Below the pieces are notes generated by a model. It was given only the letters and a program-made list of their open reading frames with translations, made no database searches and had not been told where the DNA came from. Position numbers and translations under genes: made by a program. A DNA stretch of 64,000 nucleotides. Origin: Gammaproteobacteria bacterium (GTDB lineage: Bacteria > Pseudomonadota > Gammaproteobacteria > CBDBNL01 > G965229495). The stretch lies in assembly GCA_965229495.1 (NCBI GenBank), contig OZ245880.1:65937-129936 (forward strand), given 5' to 3'. Shown here in pieces: positions 14,583 to 64,000 of this stretch (within the stretch, counting starts at the first letter, position 1; every line of letters begins with the position of its first letter).

Positions 14583-14624
14583 GCTACAGCACCAAACCAC
14601 CCCTCAGCAGCGAAGCTTGGCCGG

Positions 14625-15365: not shown

Positions 15366-15454
15366 TTACTTGAGCAGCGGGGGTTAATAGAGCTGGATTT
15401 TTAGTAGAGTGCATAATTGAGCAAAGCACCATAGCCGACTGCGAGCCTCTCAGT

Positions 15455-15780
15455 CGATCCGATTCACTGCTATTGCTGGCTCTGATGATTGCTTCAGCAA
15501 TTTGTGCCGTAGCTGGGTGGGGTTGGAAGGATGGCCTGCGGCGCTTTTATACGGCGGGCGAGAGGGTCGCGCGCCCGGGAAACCGCGCCCAGGCATAATC
15601 CAGCAAAGCTCTATGGTCTATTATCTACTCGCACTATTCTGATGCACTGCTGTTGCTAGCTACTTGGGTGGCTCAAGCGGTTTGTGCTTTGATTATGTTG
15701 GGTTGGAAGTATGGCCTTCGGCGCTTTTTACACGGCGAGCGAGACGCTCGCGCTCCCAGGCATAATCCAGTGTAGTGGGT
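15455..15780. repeat. Two diverged tandem units (~145 bp each) related to the R module
   Basis: Unit 1 ends ...ggcctgcggcgcttttatacggcgggcgagagggtcgcgcgcccgggaaaccgcgcccaggcataatccagc. Unit 2 ends ...ggccttcggcgctttttacacggcgagcgagacgctcgcgctcccaggcataatccagtg. These are not CRISPR-like (no uniform repeat/spacer structure). Confidence 0.6.
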
Positions 15781-25220: not shown

Positions 25221-25257
25221 AGCTCAAAGCATATCCACTCACCCTCGACAAACAATC

Positions 25258-28487: not shown

Positions 28488-30044
28488 GTGCAGCTAATAT
28501 TGCAGTCCTTAGCGGCGCTGGTCTTGGGCGCGCTGCTGGTGCTGGGATTTGCTCCCTTCAATTACTGGTGGGCGTACACGGCGGCACTGGTGGCGTTCAC
28601 CATCTTGCTGCAGTACCAAAGCCCGGGGGTCGCGGCTTGGCTGGGGCTGTTGCTCGGCGTTGGTCAGTTCGGGATTGGTACCTCTTGGGTTTACGTCAGC
28701 ATCTACAACTTCTCTGCCGCTGGCAGCGGCACCGCCAGTGCGCTCACCGCTTTGCTCGTGCTTTATCAAGCCTTGTTCATCGCACTGGCGTGTTGGCTGT
28801 ACGCCAAGCTCAGCCACAAGCACCTAAAGCAAAGCGCGCACCACCAAAGCATAATTCCGGCCCTGCTGCTCTTCGGTAGCTTGTGGCTGCTGGCTGAAAT
28901 TCCACGCAGCCATCTACTCAATGGCTTTCCCTGGTTACTAACTGGTTACGCCTTCTTCGACACGCCATTGACTGGCTGGGGCAAACTCGGCGGCGTTAGC
29001 GCCACTGGCGCCGCCGCCATCTTGATCGTAGTATTGCTCAGCTTCATCGTCCAGCGCGCGCCTTTGCTGGGCTTGCGCGCCGTGAAAATGCGCAGCTTGC
29101 TAGCGCTACTGGCGATAGGCTTGTTGCTGGTAACCGGTGGCGCCTTGCGCGACACCTTGCGCTGGCGCCCGCTCAGCGACGACGGTCACACTTTTGCGCT
29201 CATTCAAGGCAACATCAACCAAGCCGACAAATGGCGCCGCGACAAGCGCGGCGAAATCGTCGCGCGCTACGAGCGCTTGCTAGAGCAGGCTTGGCAGCGC
29301 AGCGACGTCATCGTACTGCCCGAAGTGGCGCTGCCTTTTCACCTGCACCAGAACTACGACTGGTACCAATCCTGGCAGCAGCGCGCGCTGGAAGACAACA
29401 AAACGCTCGTTGTCGGCGTGCTCACAGCAGACTCCGAGCGCCGTAATTACAACAGCGTGCTCGGCCTCGGCGCCAAGGGCGATTTCACCGAGAACATCTA
29501 CCATAAGAAAATACTCGTGCCTTTTGGCGAGTATTTGCCGCTACCGCCAGGCTTGAGCAAATTAGTGCGCAACCTGGCGAATTTTTCCATGAGCGCAGGG
29601 CCGCCAGACCAAGCTCCGCTTATTAGTCAACACGGAGCTCTAGCGCCCTTAGTTTGTTATGAGATTGCCTTTGATGCCTACACCGCGCGCCAAGCGCGCA
29701 CTGCCAACGCCATAGTAACGATCAGCAACGACTCCTGGTTCGGCCGATCGCTCGGCCCTGAGCAGCACGCGCAGATCGCGCGGATGCGTTCTATAGAAAA
29801 TGAAACCTACGTCCTCCGCACCACCAGCACTGGCATCAGCTTCGCCAGCGACCCTAGCGGCAAAGTCATCAGCAGCATCGAGCCTTGGCAAGAAGGCATA
29901 GCCTACGGCAAATACTTCCAAGCCAGCACGACCGACGCCACACCATTCTCGCGCTACGGCTTCTGGCCCATCTACACCCTACTGCTACTAATCGCCGCCA
30001 CCAGCGCCACAGCTCTGCGCCAAGGCTCGGCATCAAGCCCTTAA
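28488..30044 (+). CDS. lnt: Apolipoprotein N-acyltransferase
   Basis: 518 aa; N-terminal multi-TM region plus C-terminal CN-hydrolase domain (VVLPEVALP...). Confidence 0.85.
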   Translation: MQLILQSLAALVLGALLVLGFAPFNYWWAYTAALVAFTILLQYQSPGVAAWLGLLLGVGQFGIGTSWVYVSIYNFSAAGSGTASALTALLVLYQALFIALACWLYAKLSHKHLKQSAHHQSIIPALLLFGSLWLLAEIPRSHLLNGFPWLLTGYAFFDTPLTGWGKLGGVSATGAAAILIVVLLSFIVQRAPLLGLRAVKMRSLLALLAIGLLLVTGGALRDTLRWRPLSDDGHTFALIQGNINQADKWRRDKRGEIVARYERLLEQAWQRSDVIVLPEVALPFHLHQNYDWYQSWQQRALEDNKTLVVGVLTADSERRNYNSVLGLGAKGDFTENIYHKKILVPFGEYLPLPPGLSKLVRNLANFSMSAGPPDQAPLISQHGALAPLVCYEIAFDAYTARQARTANAIVTISNDSWFGRSLGPEQHAQIARMRSIENETYVLRTTSTGISFASDPSGKVISSIEPWQEGIAYGKYFQASTTDATPFSRYGFWPIYTLLLLIAATSATALRQGSASSP

Positions 30045-30064
30045 CTTTCAAACAAATTGCCATT

Positions 30065-30922
30065 ATGAGCCTGCAATACAATAATTCCCCTACTGAACTG
30101 ACAATGCCTCTACTAGTCATGGAGCCATCAGCATATGCGAGTAATAGATGCGCCTATCGTGATGATGAAAATAGCATTTGGCTATATCAAGCTAACTGCT
30201 TAGAGTTTATGGATAGCTTAATCAATAAGTTCCCGCAAGGTAAATTCGATATGATATTTGCTGACCCGCCATATTTTCTCTCAAATGGTGGGATTAGTTG
30301 CCGTGCTGGTAAGATGGTTAAAGTAGATAAAGGCACTTGGGATAAATCTAGAGGTGCCGAGCTTAACCATGAATTTAATTTAGCCTGGTTATCTCGCGCA
30401 CAAAAGCTACTGAAGGACAATGGCACCATATGGGTTTCTGGCACCCATCACGTAATACATTCTATAGGATATGGCATGCAACAATTGGGCATGAAAATTC
30501 TCAATGATATTTCTTGGGAAAAGCCCAATCCACCACCAAATTTATCTTGCCGCTACTTTACTCATTCTACTGAAACCCTAATGTGGGCTGCCAAGAATTT
30601 GAAATCAAAGCATGTCTTCAATTATCAAGATATGCGAGCACAAAACGATGGTAAACAAATGAAGACAGTTTGGCGAATAAAGCCCCCAGCAAAATCCGAG
30701 AAAAACTTTGGTAAACACCCCACTCAAAAGCCAGTAGAACTATTGGAGAGAATAATACTAGCTAGCACAAATAAGGACGATTTAATTCTAGACCCATTTG
30801 CTGGCAGCTCTACAACTGGAGTTGCTGCAATTTTAACTGATCGAAAATTTGTTGGCTGCGAATTAGAAGAAGATTTTATATCTTTGTCGGAAAAACGTTT
30901 AGCTATGGCGGTCGCGAAGTAA
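30065..30922 (+). CDS. Beta-class DNA methyltransferase (DPPY motif IV, probable N6-adenine), R-M system M subunit
   Basis: Motif IV FADPPY precedes motif I DPFAGSSTTGVAA (circularly permuted beta-class order). Real start is ATG 30065 (MSLQYNN); the tracked ORF start 29885 overlaps lnt. Low GC. Confidence 0.8.
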   Translation: MSLQYNNSPTELTMPLLVMEPSAYASNRCAYRDDENSIWLYQANCLEFMDSLINKFPQGKFDMIFADPPYFLSNGGISCRAGKMVKVDKGTWDKSRGAELNHEFNLAWLSRAQKLLKDNGTIWVSGTHHVIHSIGYGMQQLGMKILNDISWEKPNPPPNLSCRYFTHSTETLMWAAKNLKSKHVFNYQDMRAQNDGKQMKTVWRIKPPAKSEKNFGKHPTQKPVELLERIILASTNKDDLILDPFAGSSTTGVAAILTDRKFVGCELEEDFISLSEKRLAMAVAK

Positions 30923-30951
30923 CACTAACTTTAAACTTATGAGAGTGCAAA

Positions 30952-31494
30952 ATGATAAAAGATGGAACTGGTGGTGGCAATACCATAACTGGATTAAATT
31001 TCGAGAAAAAATCTGACATAGTCGAGCTTCTTAAGCAGATTCCAGGCTACGATGTCAGGCTAAAAGGTGGCAATAATTATCACGAAATATATTATGCTGG
31101 TATTCTTGTCGCCAAGTGTTACAAGAAGCATGACTTTTATAAGTATTTCCTAGAAAAAGAGCATGGTATCTACTGGCGGCAATATATTTCTCGCCAATTA
31201 CTTCCAGATAGTGCTTTACTCATTATTGTGCGGGAGACTTTGTTTATCATTGAGATAAAATACCAACAGGTTGCAGGCTCTGTCGACGAAAAATTGCAAA
31301 CTTGTGATTTTAAGCGCAAGCAATATCTCAAGCTAGTTTCACATCTCGGCATAAAAGTAGAATACGTTTATGTTTTGAGCGATTTTTTCAACAAAGAAGA
31401 GTATTCTGATGTATTAGCTTACATACACAGCGTAAATTGTCATTATAAATTCAATCAATTACCTTTATCTTGGTTAGGGCTGCCCTATGACTAA
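30952..31494 (+). CDS. Putative type II restriction endonuclease (PD-(D/E)XK)
   Basis: 180 aa, AT-rich. PD...EIK arrangement (LLPDSALLIIVRETLFIIEIKYQ). Sits 30 nt downstream of the MTase on the same strand. Confidence 0.5.
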   Translation: MIKDGTGGGNTITGLNFEKKSDIVELLKQIPGYDVRLKGGNNYHEIYYAGILVAKCYKKHDFYKYFLEKEHGIYWRQYISRQLLPDSALLIIVRETLFIIEIKYQQVAGSVDEKLQTCDFKRKQYLKLVSHLGIKVEYVYVLSDFFNKEEYSDVLAYIHSVNCHYKFNQLPLSWLGLPYD

Positions 31495-51899: not shown

Positions 51900-53117
51900 G
51901 TGCAATCCCTGCGTTCGCAATTCCCCATCTTCGGCGAGCAAGCTCGCCGCCAGCCGCTGCGCTACCTCGACAACGCCGCCACTACCCTCAAGCCATTAGC
52001 GGTCATCGATGCCATCAGCGACTGCCAAAGCCGCTTTAACGGCCCAGTGCACCGCGGGCTCTACGAATTGGCGGAGCAAGCCAGCCAGCACTACGAAGCC
52101 GCGCGCCAGCGCGTAGCGCAATTTGTCAACGCTCCCAGCCTTGAGAACATCGTCTTCACCGCCTCGGCAACGCAATCGATCAACCTGGTAGCTATGGCCT
52201 GGGCGCAGCAGCACATCGGCGCTGGCGATCAGATCTACCTCACGCGCTTGGAGCACCACAGCAACTACCTGCCTTGGCAGCGGTTGTGCTGGCAACGCCA
52301 AGCGCGCCTCAAGCTCATCGAACTCAAAGCCGACGGCAGTCTCGACCTTGACGGCGCCGAGGATCTATTTAGCCCACGCACCAAACTCATCGCCCTCAGC
52401 CACGCCTCCAACGTCACTGGCCTGCTGCTGCCGGTAGAGCAAATCTGCGCGCGCGCCCGCGCTGCTAACATCCCCACCGTGGTCGATAGCGCCCAAGCCG
52501 TGCACCATCAAGCTATAGACGTCCAAGCGCTCGGCTGCGACTTCTTAGCCTTCTCTGGGCATAAAATCTTCGGGCCCAATGGCATCGGCGTGCTCTACAT
52601 AAGCCCCAGCTACTTGGGGCAAATGCAGCCGCTCATGCTCGGTGGCGGCATGGTCGACAGCGTCGGCGCCGACTTTGCCAGCACGCAATTCGCCGAACCG
52701 CCTGCCAGCCTCGAAGCTGGATCGCAAAACCTGAGCGGCGCCCACGGCCTCGCCGCTGCTATAGACTTCTTGGAGACCACGCGCGCTCGCGCTGGCAGCG
52801 AATACCTCACCAAACTCGTCAGCGCCGCCAAGCAGCAACTGCGCGCCATTCCTGGAGTCGAGCTCTTGCCTTGCCCCGAAGACCAAGCCGGATCATTATT
52901 CGCCTTCAACCTCAGCGGCGTCCACCCACACGACGTCGCCCAAGTCGCCGCCGAAAGCAACTTGGCGCTGCGCGCTGGGCATCACTGCGCCCAGCCCTTG
53001 ATGCAATCTTTGGGAATAGCCGCCAGCGTCCGCGCCAGCTTCTCTTTTTATAACGACGCCGACGACATCGAAGCATTAGTCAGCGCCGTCCACCGCGCCC
53101 GCAAGGAATTTGCCTAA
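51900..53117 (+). CDS. sufS: Cysteine desulfurase (SufS/CsdA class V aminotransferase)
   Basis: 405 aa; PLP site FSGHKIFGPNGIG, catalytic Cys in HHCAQPL. Confidence 0.85.
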   Translation: MQSLRSQFPIFGEQARRQPLRYLDNAATTLKPLAVIDAISDCQSRFNGPVHRGLYELAEQASQHYEAARQRVAQFVNAPSLENIVFTASATQSINLVAMAWAQQHIGAGDQIYLTRLEHHSNYLPWQRLCWQRQARLKLIELKADGSLDLDGAEDLFSPRTKLIALSHASNVTGLLLPVEQICARARAANIPTVVDSAQAVHHQAIDVQALGCDFLAFSGHKIFGPNGIGVLYISPSYLGQMQPLMLGGGMVDSVGADFASTQFAEPPASLEAGSQNLSGAHGLAAAIDFLETTRARAGSEYLTKLVSAAKQQLRAIPGVELLPCPEDQAGSLFAFNLSGVHPHDVAQVAAESNLALRAGHHCAQPLMQSLGIAASVRASFSFYNDADDIEALVSAVHRARKEFA

Positions 53118-53641
53118 TGAGCGACATTGACAGAGACCAACTCAAACGCTTAGTCTTAGACCATTACAAAAAACCGCGCAACCGGGTTAGTGAACCAATG
53201 ACCGACGCCAGCGTCGTCGAACGCGGCCATAACCCGCAATGCGGCGATGAGATTGAAGTCGGACTTTACATTGAAGATCAAACAATCCGCGATATTAAAT
53301 TCCGCGGCCGCGGCTGCTCCATCTGCATAGCCACCGCCTCAATAATGACCGAGCACATTAAAGGCCAAACCCTCACAGCAAGCACCCAACTCGCCACCAC
53401 CACCCTCCACTGGCTCAAACACGAAATCCATACCAGCGCCAACTCCAACTCCAAAATTAACACCACCACCAACACTAATACCAATGCTAATGCCAACACC
53501 AACCTCACCTCAACACCTCCAACAGCGCCACCCATCCCGGCAATGGCCATCGCCCTCAACTTCCCCATCCGCTGGCGCTGCACCAGCCTCGCCTGGCAAG
53601 CCCTCCACACCGCCTTAACCGCAAGCACACGTACCGATTAA
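53117..53641 (+). CDS. sufU: SufU/IscU-like sulfur acceptor with Asn/Thr-rich linker
   Basis: QCGDEIEVGL...GRGCSICIATAS and C-terminal FPIRWRCTSLAWQAL match SufU (B. subtilis FPARIKCATLSWKAL). An unusual insert, NTTTNTNTNANANTN, lies between them. Confidence 0.75.
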   Translation: MSDIDRDQLKRLVLDHYKKPRNRVSEPMTDASVVERGHNPQCGDEIEVGLYIEDQTIRDIKFRGRGCSICIATASIMTEHIKGQTLTASTQLATTTLHWLKHEIHTSANSNSKINTTTNTNTNANANTNLTSTPPTAPPIPAMAIALNFPIRWRCTSLAWQALHTALTASTRTD

Positions 53642-53835
53642 GCGCCAAAATCCAAGCCAATCGGTGTTTATCTGTGTGCATCTATGCTTCGATACGCGAT
53701 GCTTGATCGAGCCGGGGGTGAGCCCTAACTGGCCTTGGTTGGGTGCTGCACTAACGTGGGCTTATTTGCCCATATGTTGGTCTCAAGCGCTCACTACACG
53801 GCGGGCGAGACGCCACGCGCTCCTAAGCCGGTGTT
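53412..53835. repeat. Duplicated segment copy 1: sufU 3' end + MITE-like L...R repeat
   Basis: Re-occurs at 55822-56250 (about 85% identical, with a ~50-bp indel). Confidence 0.75.
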
Positions 53836-53850
53836 TGCCCGGCTATGCTG

Positions 53851-54030
53851 CTAATCAGCTTCGAGTTTCTTGAGTATTTTGTTGGCTAGCGGCTCTTTAA
53901 TCTCCCTATGCCTTGGTACGGCCTCAACTACTCCTATCTTTGGGTTGACCCATAGCGAGTGAGATCGGCCTTCTCTTTTAAGATAACAGCCAGCCATACG
54001 CAGCTTACGCTCCAAGTCCAAGCGCTTCAT
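53851..54030 (-). CDS. hicA: HicA toxin (mRNA interferase)
   Basis: 59 aa, MKRLDLERKLRMAGCYLKREGRSHSLWVNPKIGVVEAVP... with the HicA GSH(x)W motif. Overlaps the hicB 3' end by 26 nt; not in the ORF track (<60 aa). Confidence 0.7.
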   Translation of the reverse strand: MKRLDLERKLRMAGCYLKREGRSHSLWVNPKIGVVEAVPRHREIKEPLANKILKKLEAD

Positions 54031-54244
54031 TTACTAGAATCTTATCTCTGATAGCATTCGCTGGCAGTCCTCGCAAAACATCCTCGCGTAAGTCTTGCAA
54101 AATAAGTTCTACGGCGCTTCTTAGATTTTCCTTGGTTGCTTCTATGGTCTCGCCCTGTCCATTAGCACCAGGCACCTCGAGGCAGATTGCCCAGTAGCCG
54201 CCTTCAGGCGCTTCTTCAATTATGGCAGTAAATTCTGATTGCAT
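54005..54244 (-). CDS. hicB: HicB antitoxin
   Basis: 79 aa, MQSEFTAIIEEAPEGGYWAICLEVPGANGQGETIEATKENL..., HicB RNase-H-like fold. Confidence 0.75.
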   Translation of the reverse strand: MQSEFTAIIEEAPEGGYWAICLEVPGANGQGETIEATKENLRSAVELILQDLREDVLRGLPANAIRDKILVNEALGLGA

Positions 54245-54324
54245 TTTTAATGCTCCTTATAGCGGATAAACTTGTCTCTTTTCACTCAATTTCTAGCAAT
54301 ATCTCTTTGTTCTGTTCATTGCTG

Positions 54325-55494
54325 CTATCTTGGTATTTGGGAGCAGGAGACTTCTTGGGTGTCGCCGTAGCGTGTGTCTTTTATGCTGGCTCGGCCTGTG
54401 CTTGATGAATATCCTAAGACTACATAGGTGAATGAAACGAGGTTTCCTGAGTAGGTGAATGTTTTGCCAGCGTAAACATGACTGCAAGGATCTTGCCTAA
54501 CCGCTGTGCTTGAAGAAGACTTACTGCTAGTCGAAGTGGAGCTGCTTTTATTTGAGCCATTTACCAAGTTTTCGTAGGCTTCTTGAGCTGATGAGTGTCC
54601 CTGCTTACCCGATTTACGGCACCAATACATGGCTTGATTTTTATCGGGAACGACCCCGATAGCCTCGCGATAAGCTTTGCATAAACCCCATTGACCGTAC
54701 TTATTACCCTGCTCGGCGGATAAAGTCCACCATTCAAAAGCCTTATCGTCGTCTTGGCCTACGCCTTTACCGTTAGCATACATCCAGCCTAAGCTGTACT
54801 GGGCGCTGGCATGGTTTTGCTCAGCGGCCTTGCGATACCACTTGACTGCTTCGGCATCGTTTTGCTCTACGCCTCTACCATTTGCATACATCCAGCCTAA
54901 GTTGTACTGAGCACTAGCATAACCTTGCTCGGCGGCCTTGCGGTACCACCTAACTGCTTCGGCATCGTTTTGCTCTACGCCTCTACCATTTGCATACATC
55001 CAGCCTAAGTTGTACTGAGCACTAGCATAACCTTGCTCGGCGGCCTTGCGGTACCACCTAACTGCTTCGGCATCGTTTTGCTCTACGCCTCTACCATTTG
55101 CATACATCCAGCCTAAATTAGCTTGAGCTATTTGATCGCCAGATTCGGCTAGTGCAACCATACCGGCAAATGCTTCTTCGTAGAGAGCCTTAGACCTAGA
55201 CGTATCTGCCTCTACCACTGAGCCATTTTTATAAAAAACAGCTAGGTTGTATAAGCCGATTGGATTATCCTGACTGGCAGATTTTTGCGCCCATCCGAAG
55301 GCTGCATCCAAGTCTTTTGCTACGCCATAGCCCCTTCTAAGCATACCGCTGAGCACGCCTTGGGAGTAAGCGTCGTCGGCTTGAGCACGCTGGAGAATTT
55401 CTGGATAGCTATTGATAGAGGTATCCTCGGCTATTGCGGCTGCAGGCAGTAGAGCAAGCAGCAGGGCGAGGAAAGTAAGTTTTGGTTTGTGCAT
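54325..55494 (-). CDS. Secreted Sel1-like repeat (SLR/TPR-like) protein
   Basis: Signal peptide followed by at least 7 Sel1 repeats (GxxYxxGxGVxQDxxxAxxWYxKAAxQG). Confidence 0.8.
   Translation of the reverse strand: MHKPKLTFLALLLALLPAAAIAEDTSINSYPEILQRAQADDAYSQGVLSGMLRRGYGVAKDLDAAFGWAQKSASQDNPIGLYNLAVFYKNGSVVEADTSRSKALYEEAFAGMVALAESGDQIAQANLGWMYANGRGVEQNDAEAVRWYRKAAEQGYASAQYNLGWMYANGRGVEQNDAEAVRWYRKAAEQGYASAQYNLGWMYANGRGVEQNDAEAVKWYRKAAEQNHASAQYSLGWMYANGKGVGQDDDKAFEWWTLSAEQGNKYGQWGLCKAYREAIGVVPDKNQAMYWCRKSGKQGHSSAQEAYENLVNGSNKSSSTSTSSKSSSSTAVRQDPCSHVYAGKTFTYSGNLVSFTYVVLGYSSSTGRASIKDTRYGDTQEVSCSQIPR
54780..55120. repeat. 108-bp tandem repeat x3 inside the Sel1 gene (two copies identical)
   Basis: catccagcctaagttgtactgagcactagcataaccttgctcggcggccttgcggtaccacctaactgcttcggcatcgttttgctctacgcctctaccatttgcata occurs twice perfectly plus one diverged copy. 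Confidence 0.8.
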
Positions 55495-55805
55495 GGCTTG
55501 ATTTTTGGGAATTGCGAATTCCTGGGATTATAGCAAGCGCGGCTAAGGGCAAATAACGTAAGTCTATACACCTATAGCTAATGCTAACCTGAATTCATTG
55601 GATAATCCGCAAGAATCCCATCGATTTGGGTTAAGTGGTTTATGTTTTGGGGCTTGTTGACAGTCCAAGTGTTGGTGATGAGACCGAGTTGGTGGCGCGG
55701 TGGAGGTTTTGGGAGGTAAAGTCTTGGTGGTGGGGCGCCCGGGCTTGGTAGATGAGGTCGGGGAGTGAGTTGGCGAGTTGATCAATAAGGCGGTGGGGTG
55801 AAGCG

Positions 55806-55994
55806 TTGGGTTGGTGCTTAGGGGGGCTAAAACACGAAATCAACACCAGCACCGCCCCCACCTCAACCCCTCCAATAGCACCACCCATCCCGGCAATGGC
55901 CATCGCCCTCAACTTCCCCATCCGCTGGCGCTGCACCAGCCTCGCCTGGCAAGCCCTCCACACCGCCTTAAGCACAAGCACACGTACCGATTAA
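55806..55994 (+). pseudogene. Duplicated 3' fragment of sufU (encodes ...PAMAIALNFPIRWRCTSLAWQALHTAL...)
   Basis: Copy 2 of the 53412-53835 segment; lacks the sufU N-terminal two-thirds. Confidence 0.55.
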
Positions 55995-56250
55995 ATGCCA
56001 AAATCTAAGCCAATGTTAAGAATTGGCAGTGTTGCATAGATGATCTGTGATTGCTACCAAGACAATCAATGTCTCTCTGTGTGCATCTGTGGCTCGATAA
56101 GCGATGCTTGATCGAGCAGGTGGTGAGATGCCGCGCCCTGGTGGGCTCGGTTGGGCGCGGTGATTATGTGGGCTTATTTGCCCAAAGACCGAAGCTGACG
56201 GCTTCATTTTTTACACGGCGTGGCGAGACGCCACGCGCTCCTAAGGAAAC
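55995..56250. repeat. MITE-like L...R repeat copy (part of duplicated segment copy 2)
   Basis: tgtgtgcatctgtggctcgataagcgatgcttgatcgagc ... gtgggcttatttgccca ... acacggcgtggcgagacgccacgcgctcctaagg; hairpin cgtggcg-aga-cgccacg. Confidence 0.7.
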
Positions 56251-56354
56251 TCTGATTAATTCTATTGTGGAGGCAAACTTTAAGTTTGCGTGAGTGGGTG
56301 TGCTGGGTGGGTTTATCGATACTGGCAATGCGGCGAATGCAGCTATAATCGCCT

Positions 56355-56466
56355 TAAATTATGCGGTGATTATTATATGGATACATCAGCATCGAAATTG
56401 TCCGAACTTTTCTTGGGATGCTGCCGCTCTTGCTGGTGAGCTGGCTGCTGTGAGCGTGCAAAGTTG
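56355..56466 (+). pseudogene. Truncated 5' fragment of fic, including conserved promoter-like upstream region from ~56310
   Basis: About 85% identical to 59710-59860. Start codon is mutated ATG>ATA; reads WIHQHRNCPNFSWDAAALAGELAAV then stops. Confidence 0.55.
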
Positions 56467-56506
56467 ATAAAGGCTTCAGTTATTAGCTGGCATGGTTGTG
56501 CTGGCG

Positions 56507-57061
56507 CTAGTAGGCTGTGGATGTTTTGGTGGTGGTTTGGCTTAGGCGCTTTTTAATGCGGCTGAGGGCGACTGGGGTTATGCCGAGGTAGCGGGCGATG
56601 TCGTTTTGCGTGAGCTTTTCGATGAGCTCTGGGTCGTTGTTGCAGATATTCAGGTAGCGCTCTTCGGCGCTGAGGCTGAGGAAGTCGTATTCGCGCTGCT
56701 CTTTGCGCAGATAGAGCCCTAGCAATTTTTGGATTACTTCTTCGGCGATGGCGTGTGATTCGTGCGTTGCTCGCAAGAGCTGGGCAAAGGGGATGCGAAT
56801 TAACTGAGCTGGCTCCAGCGCCACGAGGCTGAAGGTGCAGGGTAAGCCCTGGTGCGCGGCGCTGAGGCTGCCGATGATGCTGCCAGCGCGGATGAAGGAT
56901 TTGATGCCTTCTTTGCCATCGGACGAGATGTAGTAAGCCTTGAGCAGACCGGCGACGACGAAATACATGCTGTCGTCCAAATCACCCTGGTAAAACACGA
57001 TTTCGTGCTTTGCCAGCGCCAGCGGCGCGCCGCGCTGCTGGATAAATTCTGCAAGTGTCAT
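56507..57061 (-). CDS. Crp/Fnr family transcriptional regulator
   Basis: 184 aa; N-terminal cNMP-binding beta-roll and C-terminal HTH (RYLGITPVALSRIKKRL). Confidence 0.8.
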   Translation of the reverse strand: MTLAEFIQQRGAPLALAKHEIVFYQGDLDDSMYFVVAGLLKAYYISSDGKEGIKSFIRAGSIIGSLSAAHQGLPCTFSLVALEPAQLIRIPFAQLLRATHESHAIAEEVIQKLLGLYLRKEQREYDFLSLSAEERYLNICNNDPELIEKLTQNDIARYLGITPVALSRIKKRLSQTTTKTSTAY

Positions 57062-57147
57062 GGCGAGATTTTAACTTGGGTTAATGCTTTGATATTCTTG
57101 AGGCGCACAATGGTTGAATACAGGCAAGGATCAACATGGAAAGATGA

Positions 57148-57882
57148 ATGGCTATTAAAGATAAAACTATTGTCATCACTGGAGGTAGCTCTGGCATTGG
57201 CTATCAAATGCTGCGCTTGCTGCATTCTGCCAATAGGGTTTTGGTTATTGCTCGGCCTAGGCCTCGGCTGGAGGCATTGGCGCAGGAGTTTACTGGGGTA
57301 GAGCTTTATCCGGCTGATTTATCGAAGCCGCAGGAGTACGAGGCGGTGGCAACGCGCATTGGCCAGCAGCATCAGCATATAGACGTGCTAATCAATAACG
57401 CTGCCAGTCAGCACACGCCGACTTATCAAGACGATGATTTTAGTTACGCCGCTATTGCGCCGGAGATTAACTTGAATTTTACTGCTGTGTGCTCGCTGAG
57501 TTATTTGCTGCTGCCAATGCTTCTGCGCGCTAACCAGCAAGCGGTTATTGCCAATGTCAATTCCGGCCTGGCGCTAGCGCCCAAAACTAACTCGGCGGTT
57601 TATTGCGCTACCAAGGCGGCAATGGACGCTTTTTCTCGAAGCCTGAGCTATCAGCTAGAGGGCGGCAATGTGATGGTGATGCAGGCTTTTCTGCCTTTGG
57701 TCGATACGCCGATGACGCAGGGGCGTGGCAGCGGCAAGATGTCGGCGGCGCAAGCGGCGACAGAGATTTTGCGCGGTATTGAGCAGGGCGATAAAATCAG
57801 AGATATTGGCAAGGTGAAATTGCTGCGCTTGTTATTGGCTTTTGCTCCCGGCTTGGCGAGACGGATAATGCGAGGTTCATGA
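57148..57882 (+). CDS. SDR family oxidoreductase
   Basis: TGGSSGIG cofactor motif and a YCATKAA catalytic motif. Confidence 0.8.
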   Translation: MAIKDKTIVITGGSSGIGYQMLRLLHSANRVLVIARPRPRLEALAQEFTGVELYPADLSKPQEYEAVATRIGQQHQHIDVLINNAASQHTPTYQDDDFSYAAIAPEINLNFTAVCSLSYLLLPMLLRANQQAVIANVNSGLALAPKTNSAVYCATKAAMDAFSRSLSYQLEGGNVMVMQAFLPLVDTPMTQGRGSGKMSAAQAATEILRGIEQGDKIRDIGKVKLLRLLLAFAPGLARRIMRGS

Positions 57883-57886
57883 GCTT

Positions 57887-58318
57887 ATGAATAGGTTTTT
57901 CAGCGCTCTTATTGTTTTAGTGGTAGTAGCTACTCCGGCATTCGGTCAAGATATTGTCATTCGAGTTGTCGATATTGATATTGCACGGCCTGGGAATATC
58001 ATGGCGATGGTTTTTAGTGAAGATGGTTATCCAACTAAACACGACAAGGCTTTGCAGATGCAGAGCAAGCCTGCTGATAGTTCTGAGCTAGTATTCAGTT
58101 TTACGGTGAGTCAAAGCCCTTTGGCTATTAAGGTATTGCACGATGAGGATGAAAATGGTCAGACTACTAAAAACTGGACTGGCATTTGGCCAGCAGAGGG
58201 CTTGGGCTTTTCTAATGGCGCTCGGCTGCGATTGACGGGGCCGCCGAGTTTTGCCGATGCGAAGCTCGCTTTAGAAAGTATTGATGGTGCAATAATAGTC
58301 CCAGTGATTTATCCCTAG
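57887..58318 (+). CDS. DUF2141-family secreted protein
   Basis: 143 aa, signal peptide; KNWTGIWPAEGLGFSNGA matches the DUF2141 core. Confidence 0.55.
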   Translation: MNRFFSALIVLVVVATPAFGQDIVIRVVDIDIARPGNIMAMVFSEDGYPTKHDKALQMQSKPADSSELVFSFTVSQSPLAIKVLHDEDENGQTTKNWTGIWPAEGLGFSNGARLRLTGPPSFADAKLALESIDGAIIVPVIYP

Positions 58319-58329
58319 AGAGAGAAGCG

Positions 58330-58977
58330 ATGAAATCGATTGTAAAAGTAATGTTGGTGCTGGCGTTGTTTTTTGCCAGCACTTTTATCGTCTTGAAAGG
58401 CACTGGGATGATCACGGTGGACAAGATAGAGCTATGGCTGGAGGCGGCCAAGAGCTCGAATCATGTTTACGTCGCCGCTATTGTTATGCTGCTGCTCTTT
58501 GCCGATTTATTTGTGGCGGTGCCGACTCTGACTGTGATGATTTTGGCTGGTTATTTCCTGGGACCAGTGGCCGGCGCTGGCGCTGCGGTATCAGGTTTAT
58601 TGGCGGCAGGTGTTTGCGGCTATGGCATTAGCTGGAGATACGGCGATATTCTTATGCGTTTCTTGGTCAAAGAGGAGGGTCAGCGCGAGGAGGCACGGCG
58701 CACTTTCCAAGAGAACGGCGGCGTGGTGATTTTGCTGGCGCGCGCCGTACCGATTTTGCCGGAGGTGTCGGCTTGCATGGCGGGTATGACGCGGATGCCA
58801 TTGCTGAAATTCCTAGGGCTGTGGCTGGCGAGCTCGGTGCCCTATGCAACCATCGCGGCTTACGCTGGATCTATCAGCACGCTGGAAAACCCAACTCCAG
58901 CCATCCTCACGATGGTCGGGCTGACGACTTTTCTGTGGCTGGGGTGGTATTTGTTTAGAAGGAGAGTAGGGCGGTAG
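58330..58977 (+). CDS. DedA/TVP38/TMEM64 family membrane protein
   Basis: 215 aa, polytopic, glycine-rich re-entrant motif. Confidence 0.7.
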   Translation: MKSIVKVMLVLALFFASTFIVLKGTGMITVDKIELWLEAAKSSNHVYVAAIVMLLLFADLFVAVPTLTVMILAGYFLGPVAGAGAAVSGLLAAGVCGYGISWRYGDILMRFLVKEEGQREEARRTFQENGGVVILLARAVPILPEVSACMAGMTRMPLLKFLGLWLASSVPYATIAAYAGSISTLENPTPAILTMVGLTTFLWLGWYLFRRRVGR

Positions 58978-59165
58978 TGGGTTTAATGTAGGTGATTTGG
59001 CTGTTGAGTTGGCATGGTATTTGGTAGTGGGGTGGCTAAGTGTGTAGCGTCGCACGATACTGAGCTTGGGTGGAATTGAGCGAGAAGGAGCTTGTGGATA
59101 GGCTTGTTTTGGGCGCCAATTGGCGTACACTGGTTGGTGTTCGTATATTAATAGGCGCATAAATC

Positions 59166-59441
59166 ATGCTACAAGAAGCACGCATTAGCTCGCGTATCGA
59201 CGCGGGTTTGAAAAATGAAGCAGATTCGATCCTGGCACAGCTAGGCATCAAGCCCTCGCAGGCAATTACTATGTTTTACACCCAGATCGTCAGGCATCGG
59301 GGTATCCCTTTTGAACTCAAGCTTCCTAATGCTGAGACTGTGCAAGCTCTGAATGAAGATGTGAGCAATCAGCCAGCTTTCCACTCGGTTGAAGGGCTGA
59401 TGGCGGATTTGGATTCTGGCGAGGATGAATGCGCGCGCTAA
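59166..59441 (+). CDS. dinJ: Type II antitoxin RelB/DinJ family
   Basis: 91 aa, ribbon-helix-helix N-terminus; overlaps the toxin by 17 nt. Confidence 0.8.
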   Translation: MLQEARISSRIDAGLKNEADSILAQLGIKPSQAITMFYTQIVRHRGIPFELKLPNAETVQALNEDVSNQPAFHSVEGLMADLDSGEDECAR

Positions 59442-59679
59442 AGACTACAAGCGAGCAGTAAAAAGAGGCTGTGCGCCTGAGAAGCTAGAGCACATCATCC
59501 ATTTGCTCGCCACTGATCAAGCTCTACCGCGCAACGCGCGCCCGCACAAACTAACGGGTAACTACGACCAATTTTGGGAATGCCACATCGAAGCAGATTG
59601 GCTGCTTATTTACGAGCCCGTCAATAGCGATTTGCTGGTGCTGCGTCGCACCGGTAGCCATGCGGATTTGTTCGGGTGA
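59425..59679 (+). CDS. yafQ: Type II toxin YafQ/RelE family
   Basis: 84 aa; C-terminus HIEADWLLIYEPVNSDLLVLRRTGSHADLFG matches YafQ (HVEPDWILIYK...FERTGTHAALFG). Confidence 0.8.
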   Translation: MNARAKDYKRAVKRGCAPEKLEHIIHLLATDQALPRNARPHKLTGNYDQFWECHIEADWLLIYEPVNSDLLVLRRTGSHADLFG

Positions 59680-59760
59680 AATCGCTTTTATAGCTACTTC
59701 CTCCGGTCTGGCTGTGCGGCGAATATAGCTATAATCGCCTTAAATTATGCGGTGATTAAC

Positions 59761-60864
59761 ATGTGGATACACGAGCATCGAAATTGGCCGAACTTTTCTT
59801 GGGATGCTGCGGCTATTGCTGGCGAGCTGGCTGCTGTGCGCTATGCCCAAGGTCGCTTGCTGGGTCGGATGGAGGGCTTGGGTTTTGAGCTGCAGCGCGA
59901 GGCGGCTTTGACTACGCTGACTAAGGACGCTGTAAAGTCCGCCGCGATTGAGGGCGAAAGCTTGCCGCCAGCGGAGGTGCGCTCGTCTATCGCCCGCAGG
60001 CTTGGTATTGATATTGCTGGGCTTATCCCAGCAGGACGCGATGTTGAGGGCTTGGTGGAGATGATGCTGGACGGTACGCAAGGCTTTGCCGAGCCGCTAA
60101 CAAAGGAGCGTTTGTTTGCCTGGCACGCCGCGCTGTTTCCTGCAGGCAGAAGCGGTATGCATAAGATTCGCGTCGGCGCTTGGCGTTGCGTTGCTGCAGA
60201 TCCGATGCAAGTGGTCTCGGGCGCTATTGGCAGAGAAAAGCTTCACTTTGAGGCGCCAAGCGCTGAGCGTATTGAACGCGAAATGGCGGCTTTTCTAGAT
60301 TGGTTCGCAGGTGGTGATGCTATTGATCCGGTTATTAAAGCTGGCGTTGCTCATCTCTGGTTCGTGACCATTCACCCTTTTGAGGATGGCAATGGACGCA
60401 TCGCGCGCGCTATTGGCGATATGGCGTTGGCGCGCGCGGACGGGACAGCCAGTCGCTTTTATAGTCTTTCGACGCAAATTGCCGCCAAGCGCGCGGACTA
60501 TTACCAGCAGCTTGAGCGGCAGCAGCGCGCTAGCCCGGATATTACGGGTTGGCTGGCGTGGTTTTTGGCTTGCCTGGGCCGAGCTCTGGGTAATGCCGAG
60601 GGCGCGCTGGAGCAGGTGCTTTTCAAAGCCAGGCTGTGGGAATCGGTAAATCAAAATCCGCTCAACCCTCGGCAACGGCTAATAATCAACTGCATGTTAC
60701 GCGAAGATTTCCAAGGCTTTATGAATACCTCTAAATACGCTAAGCTGGCTAAATGCTCGAAAGATACCGCGCTGCGCGATATTCAAGAATTGAAAGCCCG
60801 AGCTATCTTTAGCCAAAACGCTAGCGGTGGGCGCAGCACGAGTTATCGGTTGGCGGGTTGGTAG
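59761..60864 (+). CDS. fic: Fic family protein (class II; N-terminal inhibitory SxxxEG motif + HPFEDGNGR active site)
   Basis: Canonical Fic motif HPFEDGNGRIAR. Upstream SAAIEGE matches the (S/T)xxxE(G/N) inhibitory helix. Start taken at ATG 59761; the tracked ORF uses GTG 59752. Confidence 0.85.
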   Translation: MWIHEHRNWPNFSWDAAAIAGELAAVRYAQGRLLGRMEGLGFELQREAALTTLTKDAVKSAAIEGESLPPAEVRSSIARRLGIDIAGLIPAGRDVEGLVEMMLDGTQGFAEPLTKERLFAWHAALFPAGRSGMHKIRVGAWRCVAADPMQVVSGAIGREKLHFEAPSAERIEREMAAFLDWFAGGDAIDPVIKAGVAHLWFVTIHPFEDGNGRIARAIGDMALARADGTASRFYSLSTQIAAKRADYYQQLERQQRASPDITGWLAWFLACLGRALGNAEGALEQVLFKARLWESVNQNPLNPRQRLIINCMLREDFQGFMNTSKYAKLAKCSKDTALRDIQELKARAIFSQNASGGRSTSYRLAGW

Positions 60865-60869
60865 TCTAT

Positions 60870-61042
60870 TCCTAGGGCTGTAGCTGGCGAGCTCGGTTCC
60901 TTATGCAACCATCGCGGCTTACGCTGGATCGATCAGTACGCGAGAAAACCCAACTCTAGCCATTCTCGCGATGATCGGCCTGACGACTTTTTGTGGTTGG
61001 GTTGGTATGTGTTTAGGAGTAGAGTGGGGCGGTAGTGGGCTG
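60870..61042. pseudogene. Duplicated 3' fragment of dedA (copy of 58808-58980, about 88% identity)
   Basis: ttcctagggctgtagctggcgagctcggttccttatgcaaccatcgcggcttacgctgg... matches the dedA end; reading frame broken. Confidence 0.55.
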
Positions 61043-61065: not shown

Positions 61066-64000
61066 TTAGGTTTGTTGGGTTGCGACTGGGGCGCTGATGC
61101 GCGCCCAGTCCGGGTGGTTGCTGGGGCTGGTTACTTTGCCATCAGCGCTGAGGCCGTAAACATAAGGCCAAGCGCCAGTACTGCAGCGCAGCACATTGTC
61201 CTCGCCGTCGAGCACTGCCCAGTTGTCTTCGGGTAAGAGTTGATATTGGCGTAAGAGCTGGCCAGTGCTTGCGTCCCAGAGTCGGGCGGCGGCATCAGTG
61301 GAGGCCGTAATTATTTTGCTGTCGTCGTTGCTGAAAATTGCACTCTCTACTGAGTCTTGATGTGGCAAATTGAGTATGCAAGCGCCAGTGTTGGTGTCCC
61401 AGACCTTGGCAGTTTTATCAAGAGACGCAGTAACTATTTTGCTACCGTCATTGCTGAATACGGTACTAACTACCCCAGACCGATGCTGATCTAGCGTAAA
61501 CAGGCAGGCACCAGTGCTGGCATCCCAAACTTTGGTAGTATGATCGCTAGATGCGGTTGCCAACTTATTGTTGTCGTTGCTAAACACAGCGCTCCGTATC
61601 CGATCTTGATGTTGATCCAGAGTTAGCAGGCACGCGCCAGTGGTTGTGTCCCAAACTTTGGCAATTTTTTCGCCAGAAGCAGCGATCAGTTTGCCTCCGT
61701 CACTACTGAAAGCAATGTTAATTATTGTTTCTTTATGCTGCTTTAGAGTCAGGAGGCAGCTGCCATTGGAGACGTCCCAGACCTTGGCAGTGTTATCACC
61801 AGACGCAGTAGCTATTTTGCTGCCGTCGTTACTAAAGGCAGAGCTAAGTACCGGACCTTGGTGCTGCTCCAGAGTTAGAAGACAGACACCAGTGCTTGCG
61901 TCCCAGACCTTGGCGCTGTTGTCGCTAGAGGCGGTTATTACTTTACTGTTATCATGAGTAAAATCGACGCTACGCACTCGGCCTAGATACTTTTGCATAG
62001 CTAGGTTGCATTCATCTGCTCTTAGGCTCCAGATGGACACAGAGCTATTGTTAGACGCGGTTACTAATCTGCCGCTGTCGGCGCTTAGTGCTAAAAGGAA
62101 TATTGGTGTTCGCAAGTTTCTGCCCAAAGTCATGATACAGGCGCCGGTTGTTACGTCCCAGATACTAGCGGTTCGATCGCTGGATGCGGTAATTACTCTA
62201 TTACCATCAAAGCTAAAAGCGGCACTATTTACATCGCTCTTGTGTTGCTCAAGTGTTAGCAGACAGGAGCCAGTGATGGCGTCCCAGATTTTGGCAGTGG
62301 CATCGCAAGAGGCAGTTATTATTTTGCTGCCGTCGATGCTAAAGGCAGCGCTACGCACCAAGTCGTGATGTCCCTTTAGGGTTAGGAGGCAGGTGCCAGA
62401 GTTGGCATCCCAAACTTTGGCGGTGCGATCGTCAGATGTAGTTACTATTTGGCTACCATAGCTATTGAATATAGCGCTATTCAACCATTGTTCATGACCC
62501 TCTAAAGTTAGGATGCAGGTGCCAGTGGTGAGGTCCCAGATCTTGGCGGTGTAATCTCTAGATGCGGTAACTATTTTGCTGCTGTTGAAGGCAGCGCTAC
62601 TCACCGAGTCTTTATGTTCGTCTAGGGTTAGTAGGCAGGCATCAGTACTAGCATCCCATACTTTGGCGGTGCAATCATGAGAGGCAGTAACTATTTTGCT
62701 GGTGTCGCTATTGAAGTCGGCGCTATACACCGATTTTCTATGACCGACTAGAGTTAGCAGGCAAGCGCCAGTAGTGGCATCCCATACTTTGGCAGCGCTA
62801 TCGCTAGACGCGGTAACTATTCTGCTACCATCAGCGCTAAAGGCGGCGCTATTAACTCTGCCCTGATGTTGTGCGAGCGTTAGGATGCAGACGCCAGTGG
62901 CGGCGTCCCAGAGTTTGGCGGTACCATCATTAGAGGCGGTAATCACCTTGCTCCCATCTGAGCTAAAAGTAGCGTGATTGATACGACCGTGATGAGTATC
63001 GTTAAGTTGCAAAGCATGATTGGAGAGCGACTGTGGCTCATGTAGCAGGTGCGGTGATTCGACTGCAAAAACCATGCTTGATAAAAGCGTGGAGCTGGTA
63101 GAGTCCGCGGTGCAGCGGTAAGCGTAGGCGGCGGTTGCGCCATGTGGCTCGCCCTTGCATTCTTGCCAATGGCAATGCTCAAATCGTGCTTGGGCGATGT
63201 TGGCGCCTTGAAAGTTGCAGGATTGCAAGCACAAGCGCAGGAGGCGGCAGCCGCGCAGGTTGGCATTGGCGAAGTCAATATCAGCGTAGGTCGTATCTTG
63301 GTTTGAAGAACCAAAATAAGACTCGCTCAAGTCAAAGTCGCTAAGATTGGCGCCAGTCGGTGGCCTCCAGCCTCCAGGCTGCGCCTGACCTATTTGCACC
63401 AGTAGTTTGCGTAAAGCTTTAGGGTGATTTCCTGCGAGTAAATCTTGTTGCCACTGAATAAACAGTTCTTGATTTTTTTTGCTAGCATTGGTGGTGATCT
63501 CCCAAGCAAAGGTGCAGGTCTCGGCGCTTAGCTGTGGCCAGTCTTGGTAAGCCTGCAAATCTGGGCAGTTGAAGAGAGCTAGAGCCAAAAAGTATTCATA
63601 GAAAGAGCTATGGACAAAGGCGAAATCGCTGGCGCCGGAACGCACTAGCAAGTTGGCGTTGTGGAGCTCGGTGTGCAGCAGATTGCGCGCTTGTAGCTTG
63701 CTGCCTATCATTAGGCGTAATCCGGATTGGTTCTCTGCATATCCATCAAACCACTGGTCGAGCTCGGCTACTGGTAGAGCAGCGGCACGACGTTGCCACA
63801 GCTCTAGCGCTAGCGCTTGCAGCAGGCGGGTGCGGTCGTCGACGTTGAGCAGCGGGTTCTTGTCGCCGTCTCGTGCTATGCAGCGCTGAAAGAGCTCTTG
63901 GTAAACCAGAGCGGTATTGAGCGCGTGCCCGGATTGCTGCGCGGCGATTAGTTCGGGTATCAAGTCGCTTATATAGCGCGCTAGGATCGGCTTGCGCGCT
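61066..64000 (-). CDS. NACHT(STAND NTPase, C-terminal part)-pentapeptide repeat-WD40 (about 14 blades) protein; N-terminus beyond window end
   Basis: The reading frame is open to position 64000, so the tracked TTG start is probably internal. FAFVHSSFYEYFLALALF resembles the NACHT winged-helix end. Pentapeptide repeats (ANLSDFDLSE...ANLRGCRL...) follow, then repeated WD40 units ...TASxDxTAKVWDAxTGxCLLTLxxH.... Confidence 0.8.
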   Translation of the reverse strand, partial: ARKPILARYISDLIPELIAAQQSGHALNTALVYQELFQRCIARDGDKNPLLNVDDRTRLLQALALELWQRRAAALPVAELDQWFDGYAENQSGLRLMIGSKLQARNLLHTELHNANLLVRSGASDFAFVHSSFYEYFLALALFNCPDLQAYQDWPQLSAETCTFAWEITTNASKKNQELFIQWQQDLLAGNHPKALRKLLVQIGQAQPGGWRPPTGANLSDFDLSESYFGSSNQDTTYADIDFANANLRGCRLLRLCLQSCNFQGANIAQARFEHCHWQECKGEPHGATAAYAYRCTADSTSSTLLSSMVFAVESPHLLHEPQSLSNHALQLNDTHHGRINHATFSSDGSKVITASNDGTAKLWDAATGVCILTLAQHQGRVNSAAFSADGSRIVTASSDSAAKVWDATTGACLLTLVGHRKSVYSADFNSDTSKIVTASHDCTAKVWDASTDACLLTLDEHKDSVSSAAFNSSKIVTASRDYTAKIWDLTTGTCILTLEGHEQWLNSAIFNSYGSQIVTTSDDRTAKVWDANSGTCLLTLKGHHDLVRSAAFSIDGSKIITASCDATAKIWDAITGSCLLTLEQHKSDVNSAAFSFDGNRVITASSDRTASIWDVTTGACIMTLGRNLRTPIFLLALSADSGRLVTASNNSSVSIWSLRADECNLAMQKYLGRVRSVDFTHDNSKVITASSDNSAKVWDASTGVCLLTLEQHQGPVLSSAFSNDGSKIATASGDNTAKVWDVSNGSCLLTLKQHKETIINIAFSSDGGKLIAASGEKIAKVWDTTTGACLLTLDQHQDRIRSAVFSNDNNKLATASSDHTTKVWDASTGACLFTLDQHRSGVVSTVFSNDGSKIVTASLDKTAKVWDTNTGACILNLPHQDSVESAIFSNDDSKIITASTDAAARLWDASTGQLLRQYQLLPEDNWAVLDGEDNVLRCSTGAWPYVYGLSADGKVTSPSNHPDWARISAPVATQQT

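Follow-up and report, generated by a model that had tools for sequence, protein, structure and literature searches.

The 64,000-nucleotide stretch of contig OZ245880.1 analysed here (the window; coordinates given without a locus name count from its first letter) carries, from the end of sufU onwards, an array of small gene cassettes in which three gene ends are present twice (53412–61042): the 3' end in the case of sufU and of dedA, the 5' end in that of fic. The last core gene before sufU is sufS, encoding cysteine desulfurase (51900–53117, plus strand; Pfam Aminotran_5, E 2e-126), which is syntenic and ~90% identical in four related loci (L006, L007, L010 and L011). It is followed by an intact sufU gene (53117–53641, plus strand; 174 amino acids, Pfam NifU_N, 100% match to the protein P0121). 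Downstream of sufU lie, on the minus strand, hicA (53851–54030; HicA_toxin, E 3e-8), an overlapping hicB-like open reading frame (ORF) of 79 amino acids (54005–54244; UPF0150, E 0.002, a weak match under the gathering score) and a gene for a secreted Sel1-repeat protein of 389 amino acids (54325–55494; Sel1, E 4e-63), which contains three internal 108-nt repeats. Then follow a block of four genes with Pfam matches (56502–58964), consisting of crp-like (56507–57061, minus strand), SDR (57148–57882), DUF2141 (57887–58318) and, as its last gene, dedA/VTT (58330–58977), and, on the plus strand, dinJ/relB (59166–59441; RelB, E 7e-18), yafQ (59425–59679; YafQ_toxin, E 6e-28) and an intact fic gene (ATG at 59761, stop at 60864; DUF4172 and Fic). 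The right-hand neighbour of the array is the 3' part of a large WD40-repeat gene (61066–64000, minus strand; Pfam WD40), which continues past the window end; it has the same position in the related loci L004 and L008, and its orthologues have 1582–1637 amino acids. The gene identities proposed in the sequence-only reading (sufS, sufU, hicA, Sel1, crp, SDR, DUF2141, dedA, dinJ, yafQ, fic, WD40) were thus upheld by Pfam, with weak support for hicB. Two type II toxin-antitoxin (TA) pairs are present, RelB/DinJ with YafQ and HicA with the overlapping UPF0150-like ORF, the call of the latter as an antitoxin being weak.

The GC content is 0.60–0.64 in the cox-xdhC-sufS core versus 0.45–0.55 from the sufU end to the window end, and the coding-strand GC skew of the variable region is reversed relative to the core genes. 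Furthermore, fic matches the PADLOC defence model SoFic (E 3e-41). These three features give the region the appearance of acquired accessory DNA. The 7.6 kb next to sufU belong to a defence- and TA-rich accessory hotspot of horizontal origin, which starts at the sufU stop codon.

All three duplications reported in the sequence-only reading are present, with self-BLAST E values from 3e-45 to 6e-67. Repeat A1 (53412–53835) comprises the last ~230 nt of sufU and ~190 nt of an intergenic repeat, with an X motif at 53664–53686 and a Y motif at 53793–53814. Its counterpart A2 (55825–56250) consists of a non-functional sufU 3' fragment starting at codon ~99, a 52-nt insert and a copy of the X/Y repeat; the two bracket the hicA-hicB pair and, as the second gene of the cargo, the Sel1 gene. 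Self-BLAST and a repeat search of the window aligned 53412–53827 with 55825–56245 (E 6e-67). The overall identity is only 72%, because A1 has ~41 nt of extra linker and A2 the 52-nt insert, whereas the 169-nt coding core is 93% identical and includes a perfectly identical run of 91 nt (53528–53618 and 55881–55971). Repeat B1 (56322–56455) contains a dead copy of the fic promoter-like site and of the first ~32 codons, and B2 (59708–59841, plus strand) the promoter-like region and 5' end of the intact fic gene; by self-BLAST they are 89.6% identical without gaps (E 3e-45). Repeat C1 (58809–58981) is the functional dedA 3' end, and C2 (60868–61039) a dead dedA 3' fragment, which begins 3 bp past the fic stop codon and ends 27 bp short of the stop codon of the convergent WD40 gene (89.0% identity, one 1-nt gap, E 3e-58). 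The longest identical runs in the B and C pairs are 29–32 nt.

In each case the complete gene (sufU, dedA, fic) is intact and the displaced copy (A2, C2, B1) is dead: in B1 the ATG is changed to ATA and the reading frame then meets stop codons, and in C2 there is an in-frame stop codon as well as a 1-nt deletion that shifts the frame. B1 retains a good match to a sigma-70-like promoter (56322–56349; CTGGCA-16-TATAAT, 10/12); this promoter is directed at the 3' end of the convergent crp-like gene and might thus give rise to antisense transcripts. C1 and C2 of the window have in common the derived bases GCAACC, which none of the other copies has and which suggest gene conversion between the two repeats. 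Along the DNA the order is A1, A2, B1, C1, B2, C2. The interleaving claimed in the sequence-only reading therefore holds for B and C; A is not interleaved, and A2 just adjoins B1 at a distance of 70 bp.

Relatives were found by homologue searches with DedA, SufU and Fic. The clade was seen only in two ENA metagenome assemblies, ERZ25074194 and ERZ25074195, which hold roughly 25 contigs of the sufU clade and from which nine related loci (L003–L011) were read, 5–10 kb around each; no close relative was present in the species-representative genome collection, where a SufS search gave only matches of ~30% identity. The orthologous flanks in L004 and L008 stand in for the DNA beyond 64 kb.

Upstream of sufU, L006, L007, L010 and L011 are collinear with the window at ~90–94% identity. 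This homology stops within ~18 bp of the sufU stop codon, and the cargo downstream differs in each lineage (TA pairs, GmrSD, or a radical-SAM/AAA/helicase set). In L010, sufU is directly followed by hicA-hicB, and there is a single copy of the sufU end. In L007, sufU is followed by a 5.9-kb radical-SAM/AAA/helicase block, an A2 copy, hicA-hicB as in L010, an older fragment A3 interrupted by an X repeat, and a gene for a Transposase_31 protein. In L006, three unknown genes, hicB, an old sufU fragment and Transposase_31 follow, and in L011 GmrSD and then a sufU fragment with X/Y repeats. L008 has hicB, an old sufU fragment, an insertion sequence (IS) remnant, crp-SDR-DUF2141-dedA, dinJ-yafQ, fic, C2 and WD40. 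Apart from the single copy in L010, the sufU 3' end is present two or three times per locus. In the alignment, the left side of L010 matches the A1 side and its right side the A2 side of L007; L010 thus represents the L007 site in its unoccupied state, and the two differ by the 5.9 kb of cargo and one ~165-bp copy of the sufU end. The insertion-deletion polymorphism on which the sequence-only reading depended thus exists. Its view that the fragments mark insertions of small cassettes at gene ends is borne out by the differing cargo between the sufU-end copies of L006, L007, L011 and the window, and by a dedA fragment in L003. Its claim that each cassette carries a TA pair is not, as relatives have GmrSD or the radical-SAM/AAA/helicase set instead. 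The 470-bp hicA-hicB module has an 89.6% identical copy at L006 16481–16953, ~6 kb from the sufU gene of that locus.

On their left side, the displaced sufU fragments end at no fewer than three different points, which correspond to window positions 53308, 53412 and 53528. The left boundary of the window A2 is identical in L007 A2 and in L009, where the A2 junction is present together with 56 bp of its left flank in inverted orientation; two further boundary classes are represented by L006 A2 and L007 A3, and by L011 A2. The divergence of the displaced fragments rises with their distance from sufU: the core segment is 100% identical to functional copies in the A2 fragments of the window and L011, 96–97.5% in L007 A2 and 91% in L007 A3 and L006 A2. 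Furthermore, L011 A2 matches the functional sufU ends found in other lineages at ~97% identity, versus 92.6% for its own A1, a pattern that indicates recombination between lineages at the sufU site. Positions 53529–53608 are the most conserved 80-nt window of sufS-sufU (99% mean pairwise identity among five lineages, versus roughly 92% typically). Directly adjoining this most conserved part is the least conserved one: the SufU proteins of this clade (154–202 amino acids; P0121–P0144) possess an N/T/S-rich low-complexity linker of very variable length (window 53420–53520; 69–82% identity) before the C-terminal segment with the Cys ligand.

In L009, inverted copies of ~150 bp (11579–11728 and 19880–20033) bracket ~8 kb of accessory genes and the inverted sufU fragment. 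These copies are homologous to the 3'-end surroundings of an IspD/NTP_transf_3-like gene upstream of xdhC (L006 5635–5784). As they come from the surroundings of sufU, pieces of this neighbourhood travel with cassettes.

At the dedA and fic sites, the crp-to-dedA block recurs at ~92% identity in L003, L005, L004 and L008. Its ends are identical and sharp each time (5 bp past the crp stop codon and in the last dedA codons), and it sits in three unrelated contexts, namely in L003, in L005, and in the window together with L004 and L008. L005 has the block at a different chromosomal position, 640 bp from a homologue (94%) of an AcrB-family gene of the window (L005 1–2645 versus window 25169–27179); the homology of this AcrB region breaks off in the upstream carboxyltransferase gene, 51 bp inside its 3' end, which is another gene-end breakpoint. 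L003 contains a 76-nt dedA 3' fragment 6.8 kb downstream of dedA, with unrelated cargo between them, and L009 has a stand-alone fic gene (corresponding to window 59715–60859) in a different context, its left end being that of repeat B. From B1 to WD40, L004 and the window are collinear; the left duplicate of L004 is longer (~1.1 kb, dinJ-yafQ-fic 5'), so that the order is dinJ-yafQ-fic5' / crp..dedA / dinJ-yafQ-fic / dedA3'. Both dinJ copies of L004 are interrupted, at different positions, by two different IS elements of the DDE_Tnp_1 type (5752–8126 and 10706–12764), and its yafQ copies look intact. L008 has C1 and C2 without B1, in whose place the IS remnant is located. The IS copies in L004 and L008 are later insertions and lie at different positions.

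The B1/crp junction is common to the window and L004, and the fic/C2 junction to the window, L004 and L008. Since the DNA of these loci is only 85–98% identical to the window, the B and C junctions predate the split of the lineages and are not recent; an empty site for B or C was not found in the nine related loci. Between the window and L004/L008 the identity is 89–94% for the crp-to-dedA genes, 96–98% for dinJ-yafQ, 95% for fic and 85% for C2 (range 84.9–98.3%). These values differ between modules of the same genomes, which means that the modules have different histories. C2, which L004 and L008 possess as well, has diverged faster than its neighbours (84.9% versus 90–98%).

No dedicated recombinase was detected at any of these sites. 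The Pfam scan took in window ORFs of at least 140 amino acids and, as the sequence-only reading had stated, none of these encodes an integrase or transposase domain (Phage_integrase, Resolvase, Recombinase). The unscanned ORFs lie within the stretch from 44.6 kb on, except for one at 2742–5558; this stretch is 93% identical to the annotated cox genes of L006. Within 5–10 kb no integrase is annotated in the gene tables of L003–L011, and none was found in the cassettes of L007 and L011, which are flanked by sufU fragments of low divergence. As to a transposon or IS, no transposase was found in the window, and the duplications measure 130–420 bp; as to an integron, no integrase domain was found, and the genes upstream of the array are cox, xdhC, sufS and sufU. 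The window repeats show no folding excess indicative of attC-like hairpins (single-strand z-scores −0.03 to −1.19), and no 28-bp dif-like XerC/XerD site of the kind that flanks Xer-dependent pdif modules (IMEX) was matched with up to 3 mismatches to the E. coli-type consensus, a pattern which a divergent dif could escape. Rfam gave only two tRNAs, far from the region.

Potential donors were looked for as well. The sufU core had no match in JGI metagenomes or IMG/VR viral contigs, nor had the fic promoter repeat in the latter, and in the PLSDB plasmids only fic was matched, at 64–69% identity. Several candidate signals were dropped. A common boundary motif (GGCTGTGG / CTAGNNGGCTGTGG) was weakly enriched (7 versus 2.35 expected), with one copy off-boundary. 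The DNA after C2 resembled the left end of the crp module, as expected for a circular or tandem junction, no better than shuffled sequences (alignment score 24 versus 20 ± 3). The 1-nt deletion common to the C2 copies and the L003 fragment was rejected as evidence of common origin, as it lies in a T-run and the L003 fragment shows no greater overall similarity to the C2 type. Nor were the X and Y repeats retained as the ends of an autonomous element, since the flanks around the Transposase_31 gene of L009 are not conserved. Transposase_31 itself (YhgA/Rpn-like, PD-(D/E)XK) was considered as a local recombinase and discarded: it is present in L006, L007 and L009, and tblastn gave no match in the window. 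In L006 (13377–14288) and L007 (17663–18574) its gene stands directly after the oldest sufU fragment; in L009 (6189–7145) it lies inside a type I restriction-modification operon and has a partial tandem copy of its own 3' end.

An intact gene followed by cargo and a displaced copy of the gene end is known as the product of two processes, the integration of an integrase element that carries a replacement gene end, and a single crossover with a circle carrying a gene fragment. We tentatively favour homology-anchored insertion by a single crossover, followed by exchange of blocks between lineages. Incoming DNA would carry the conserved end of a resident gene (sufU 3', dedA 3' or dinJ-yafQ-fic 5') beside foreign cargo, and would recombine with the chromosome via this homology alone, in a Campbell-type single crossover of a circle or an equivalent one-ended event. 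The product would be the intact gene, the cargo and a displaced partial copy of the gene end. Repeated insertion at one anchor would push the older fragments outward, and ordinary homologous recombination could carry whole blocks from one related lineage to another. A cassette could also be looped out via its flanking repeats. For integron arrays, a stabilising effect of TA cassettes has been proposed; by this analogy, TA modules may bias the survival of repeat-flanked cassettes by stabilising them against loop-out. We infer from the arrangements described above that insertion took place by crossover, that a circle was the intermediate and that the TA modules have a stabilising effect.

Several observations favour this homology-driven version. 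A duplicated segment, 134–420 bp long in the window and ~1.1 kb in L004, flanks the insert, and L010 has one copy where L007 has two. A duplicated sufU end is seen repeatedly around unrelated cargo (window, L006, L007 and L011), and a duplicated dedA end is seen again in L003. The duplications of 130–1100 bp resemble those of 109–950 bp obtained in single crossovers between the E. coli chromosome and circular molecules, whereas homology-facilitated illegitimate recombination (HFIR) usually yields a deletion of recipient DNA (PMC3240628). Moreover, the duplicated segments can include intergenic repeat DNA or a whole TA operon, and they hold identical runs of 29–91 nt, judged long enough for RecA-type pairing. 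A single site-specific recombinase would not be expected to produce the several boundaries of the sufU fragments, and the ten loci, among them the cassettes with little-diverged fragments, showed no integrase. L011 A2 is closer to other lineages than to its own A1. Finally, the gene conversion suggested for C1 and C2, the unequal divergence of the modules, and the low GC content with its reversed skew speak for this version as well. Other points weigh against this reading. Neither a circular form nor a donor was seen, the plasmid matches being limited to fic at 64–69% and the viral contigs and JGI metagenomes giving no match. The B and C junctions date from about the time of the lineage split, so that crossover signatures have been erased. 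A deletion between A1 and A2, or the transfer of a pre-formed block by a double crossover, would account equally well for the difference between L010 and L007, and this pair proves gain or loss, not the origin of the duplication. The single A2 left boundary in the window, L007 and L009 could reflect a fixed recombination core and not common descent. An intact gene with a displaced end is, moreover, the textbook product of integrase-mediated integration. Lastly, 5–10 kb were covered per relative, and several flanking ORFs there have no Pfam match.

The main competitor is that the repeats at sufU 3', dedA 3' and fic 5' are attL/attR scars of small islands that integrated site-specifically by a tyrosine or serine integrase and brought a replacement gene end each time, with the integrase lost or acting in trans or in cis, and that the array grew by the accretion known for cis-mobilizable elements (CIMEs). 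Integrase islands leave an intact target and displaced ends, with the most diverged ends furthest out, which fits accretion at sufU (PMC5704250; for tycheposon arrays, 10.1101/2020.12.28.424599). The unusual conservation of the sufU core, with 91 nt identical between A1 and A2, is what would be expected of an att core, and the exact left boundary common to window A2, L007 A2 and L009 points the same way. Yet this one boundary in three loci is accompanied by two others elsewhere, giving at least three boundary classes in sufU (later trimming of fragments is possible). The repeats extend up to 420–1100 bp and take in intergenic repeat sequence as well as an entire TA operon; the IMG/VR viral contigs lack the sufU core and the fic promoter repeat; and neither the scanned window ORFs nor the nine related loci, including the L007 and L011 cassettes, revealed an integrase. 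We therefore regard site-specific integration as somewhat less likely than the single crossover. The repeat-mediated cassette exchange put forward in the sequence-only reading fits the data, as an interpretation beside which an integrase acting in trans still stands as the alternative.

The interleaving of B and C could be explained neatly by tandem duplication of a unit such as dinJ-yafQ-fic-crp-SDR-DUF2141-dedA with reciprocal loss, the A pair having arisen similarly with later replacement of its cargo. Indeed, the L004 order (T-B-M-C-T-B-F-C) resembles two tandem units with complementary losses, each gene survives exactly once, and the fragments are dead and evolve faster than their neighbours. 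However, a triplication or two deletions ending 3–5 bp from retained genes would be required; the crp-to-dedA block has the same sharp ends in the unrelated contexts of L003 and L005; the stand-alone fic gene of L009 has the same left end; and at sufU the cargo between the copies is unrelated between genomes and an empty site exists. Tandem duplication thus appears improbable. False near-duplicates joined from strain variants might be suspected, as the relatives, and possibly the source, are metagenome assemblies with several co-occurring related populations. The copies differ by 7–28%, though, which is not the picture of collapsed repeats, the divergence of the fragments tracks the divergence of the lineages, and the same junctions recur in independent contigs with different coverage (L004 and L008; the sufU fragments of L006, L007 and L011), so that an assembly artefact is effectively excluded. 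More speculatively, and with a small likelihood in our view, the ~80–90-nt ultra-conserved 3' stretch of sufU, an essential gene, and by analogy dedA 3' and fic 5', might act as a portable attachment site common to a pool of defence and TA cassettes that circulate in this uncultured clade. It would serve an integron-like accretion platform, either free of recombinases and run by host homologous recombination or run by an unrecognised trans-acting enzyme, e.g., the Rpn/Transposase_31 nuclease, whose gene lies at the far end of the L006 and L007 arrays, and the TA modules would guard against loop-out.

Homology-anchored insertion by a single crossover, our preferred explanation, can be compared with several known systems. 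Campbell-type insertion is known mainly from laboratory constructs and plasmid integration, and a natural, recurrent cassette-accreting hotspot built by it is, to our knowledge, not an established category. Hotspots next to core genes that are free of mobile genetic elements have a fixed position and lineage-specific accessory or defence genes, with recombination in the flanking core genes as the supposed driver. Here, too, the position beside core genes is fixed, the cargo differs and no recognisable mobile-element genes are present; yet double-crossover replacement leaves no duplicated gene ends, whereas here duplicated anchors are the rule. Sedentary chromosomal integron arrays likewise contain small shuffled cassettes, several TA pairs and repeats between them. 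In contrast to these, no intI was found here, the repeats are gene ends and not attC sites and show no hairpin excess, and the cassettes lie in both orientations, apparently with their own promoters. The topology of a Campbell-type single crossover is the same as that observed here, with an intact gene, an insert and a duplicated homologous segment (PMC3240628). HFIR is similar in that a one-sided homologous anchor admits foreign DNA beside a conserved gene without a dedicated recombinase, but its illegitimate joints carry 3–10 bp of microhomology and it typically deletes a similar-sized piece of recipient DNA, whereas here the anchor is duplicated instead. Tandem accretion of CIMEs and integrative elements related to ICESt1 at the fda 3' end of Streptococcus thermophilus also pushes older elements outward and leaves the target intact (PMC5704250). 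Unlike in the CIME arrays, neither an intact nor a decayed integrase was found in the ten loci, the repeats, at 130–1100 bp, are much longer and have several boundaries, and one duplicated anchor consists of a gene 5' end with its promoter and the neighbouring TA operon. Tycheposon islands of Prochlorococcus share the fixed sites, the partial target copies among the cargo and the large proportion of DNA without mobility genes (10.1101/2020.12.28.424599). Tycheposons, however, encode tyrosine or serine integrases and mostly target tRNA genes, whereas here the ends of protein-coding genes are involved and no integrase was found.

Other parts of the window contain comparable structures. A TIR-NB-ARC-TPR gene (11832–14582; PADLOC ThsB-like TIR, E 2.5e-26) is situated between direct X repeats (region 11648–14838), whose copies (11648–11719 and 14710–14777) share an identical run of 41 nt, and looks like another repeat-bracketed defence cassette. 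The same X motif, in inverted orientation, follows each sufU 3' copy in A1 and A2. At 7040–7129 and 8162–8249, a small lipoprotein-like ORF (MNNQ.QAIA...) has its 5' end in two copies of 87% identity, the first copy being without the lipobox Cys; the copies bracket a 74-amino-acid ORF and a 214-amino-acid protein with a GHSLGG lipase-like motif and no Pfam match, and may be a further gene-end duplication around a small cassette. Directly after lnt, a low-GC islet (29885–31494; 0.42) carries a type II DNA methyltransferase (N6_N4_Mtase) and a 180-amino-acid ORF with a faint PD-(D/E)XK match; the islet probably represents a small insertion of restriction-modification type. Intergenic repeats of ~130/260 bp, both tandem and dispersed, which contain GGGCTTATTTGCCCA and the Y motif TTTACACGGCGGGCGAGACGCC, lie between cassettes (L006 14372–17635, L008 11197–12078, L004 18930–19783, window 15200–15770) and represent a family similar to repetitive extragenic palindromes (REP) or miniature inverted-repeat transposable elements (MITE), with no identified transposase.

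The locus is a real cassette-accreting hotspot with gain/loss polymorphism and without a visible recombinase. We would class it as an integration hotspot or an array of decayed islands, with scars that point to homology-anchored insertion; left beside sufU apparently without a dedicated recombinase, these scars make it an uncommon variant of the familiar genomic island. For the question of how accessory and defence genes enter hotspots that lack mobile-element genes, this locus offers a concrete, testable case: one gene end is duplicated repeatedly with differing cargo, an occupied and an empty form of the site are available, and five repeat-bracketed cassettes are found in 64 kb. Should an integrase be found, the locus would be an ordinary decayed-island array at a new target, the sufU 3' end. 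If the single-crossover reading is true, the ends of essential genes would be natural landing pads for foreign DNA, and the displaced fragments would record the order in which the cassettes were acquired.

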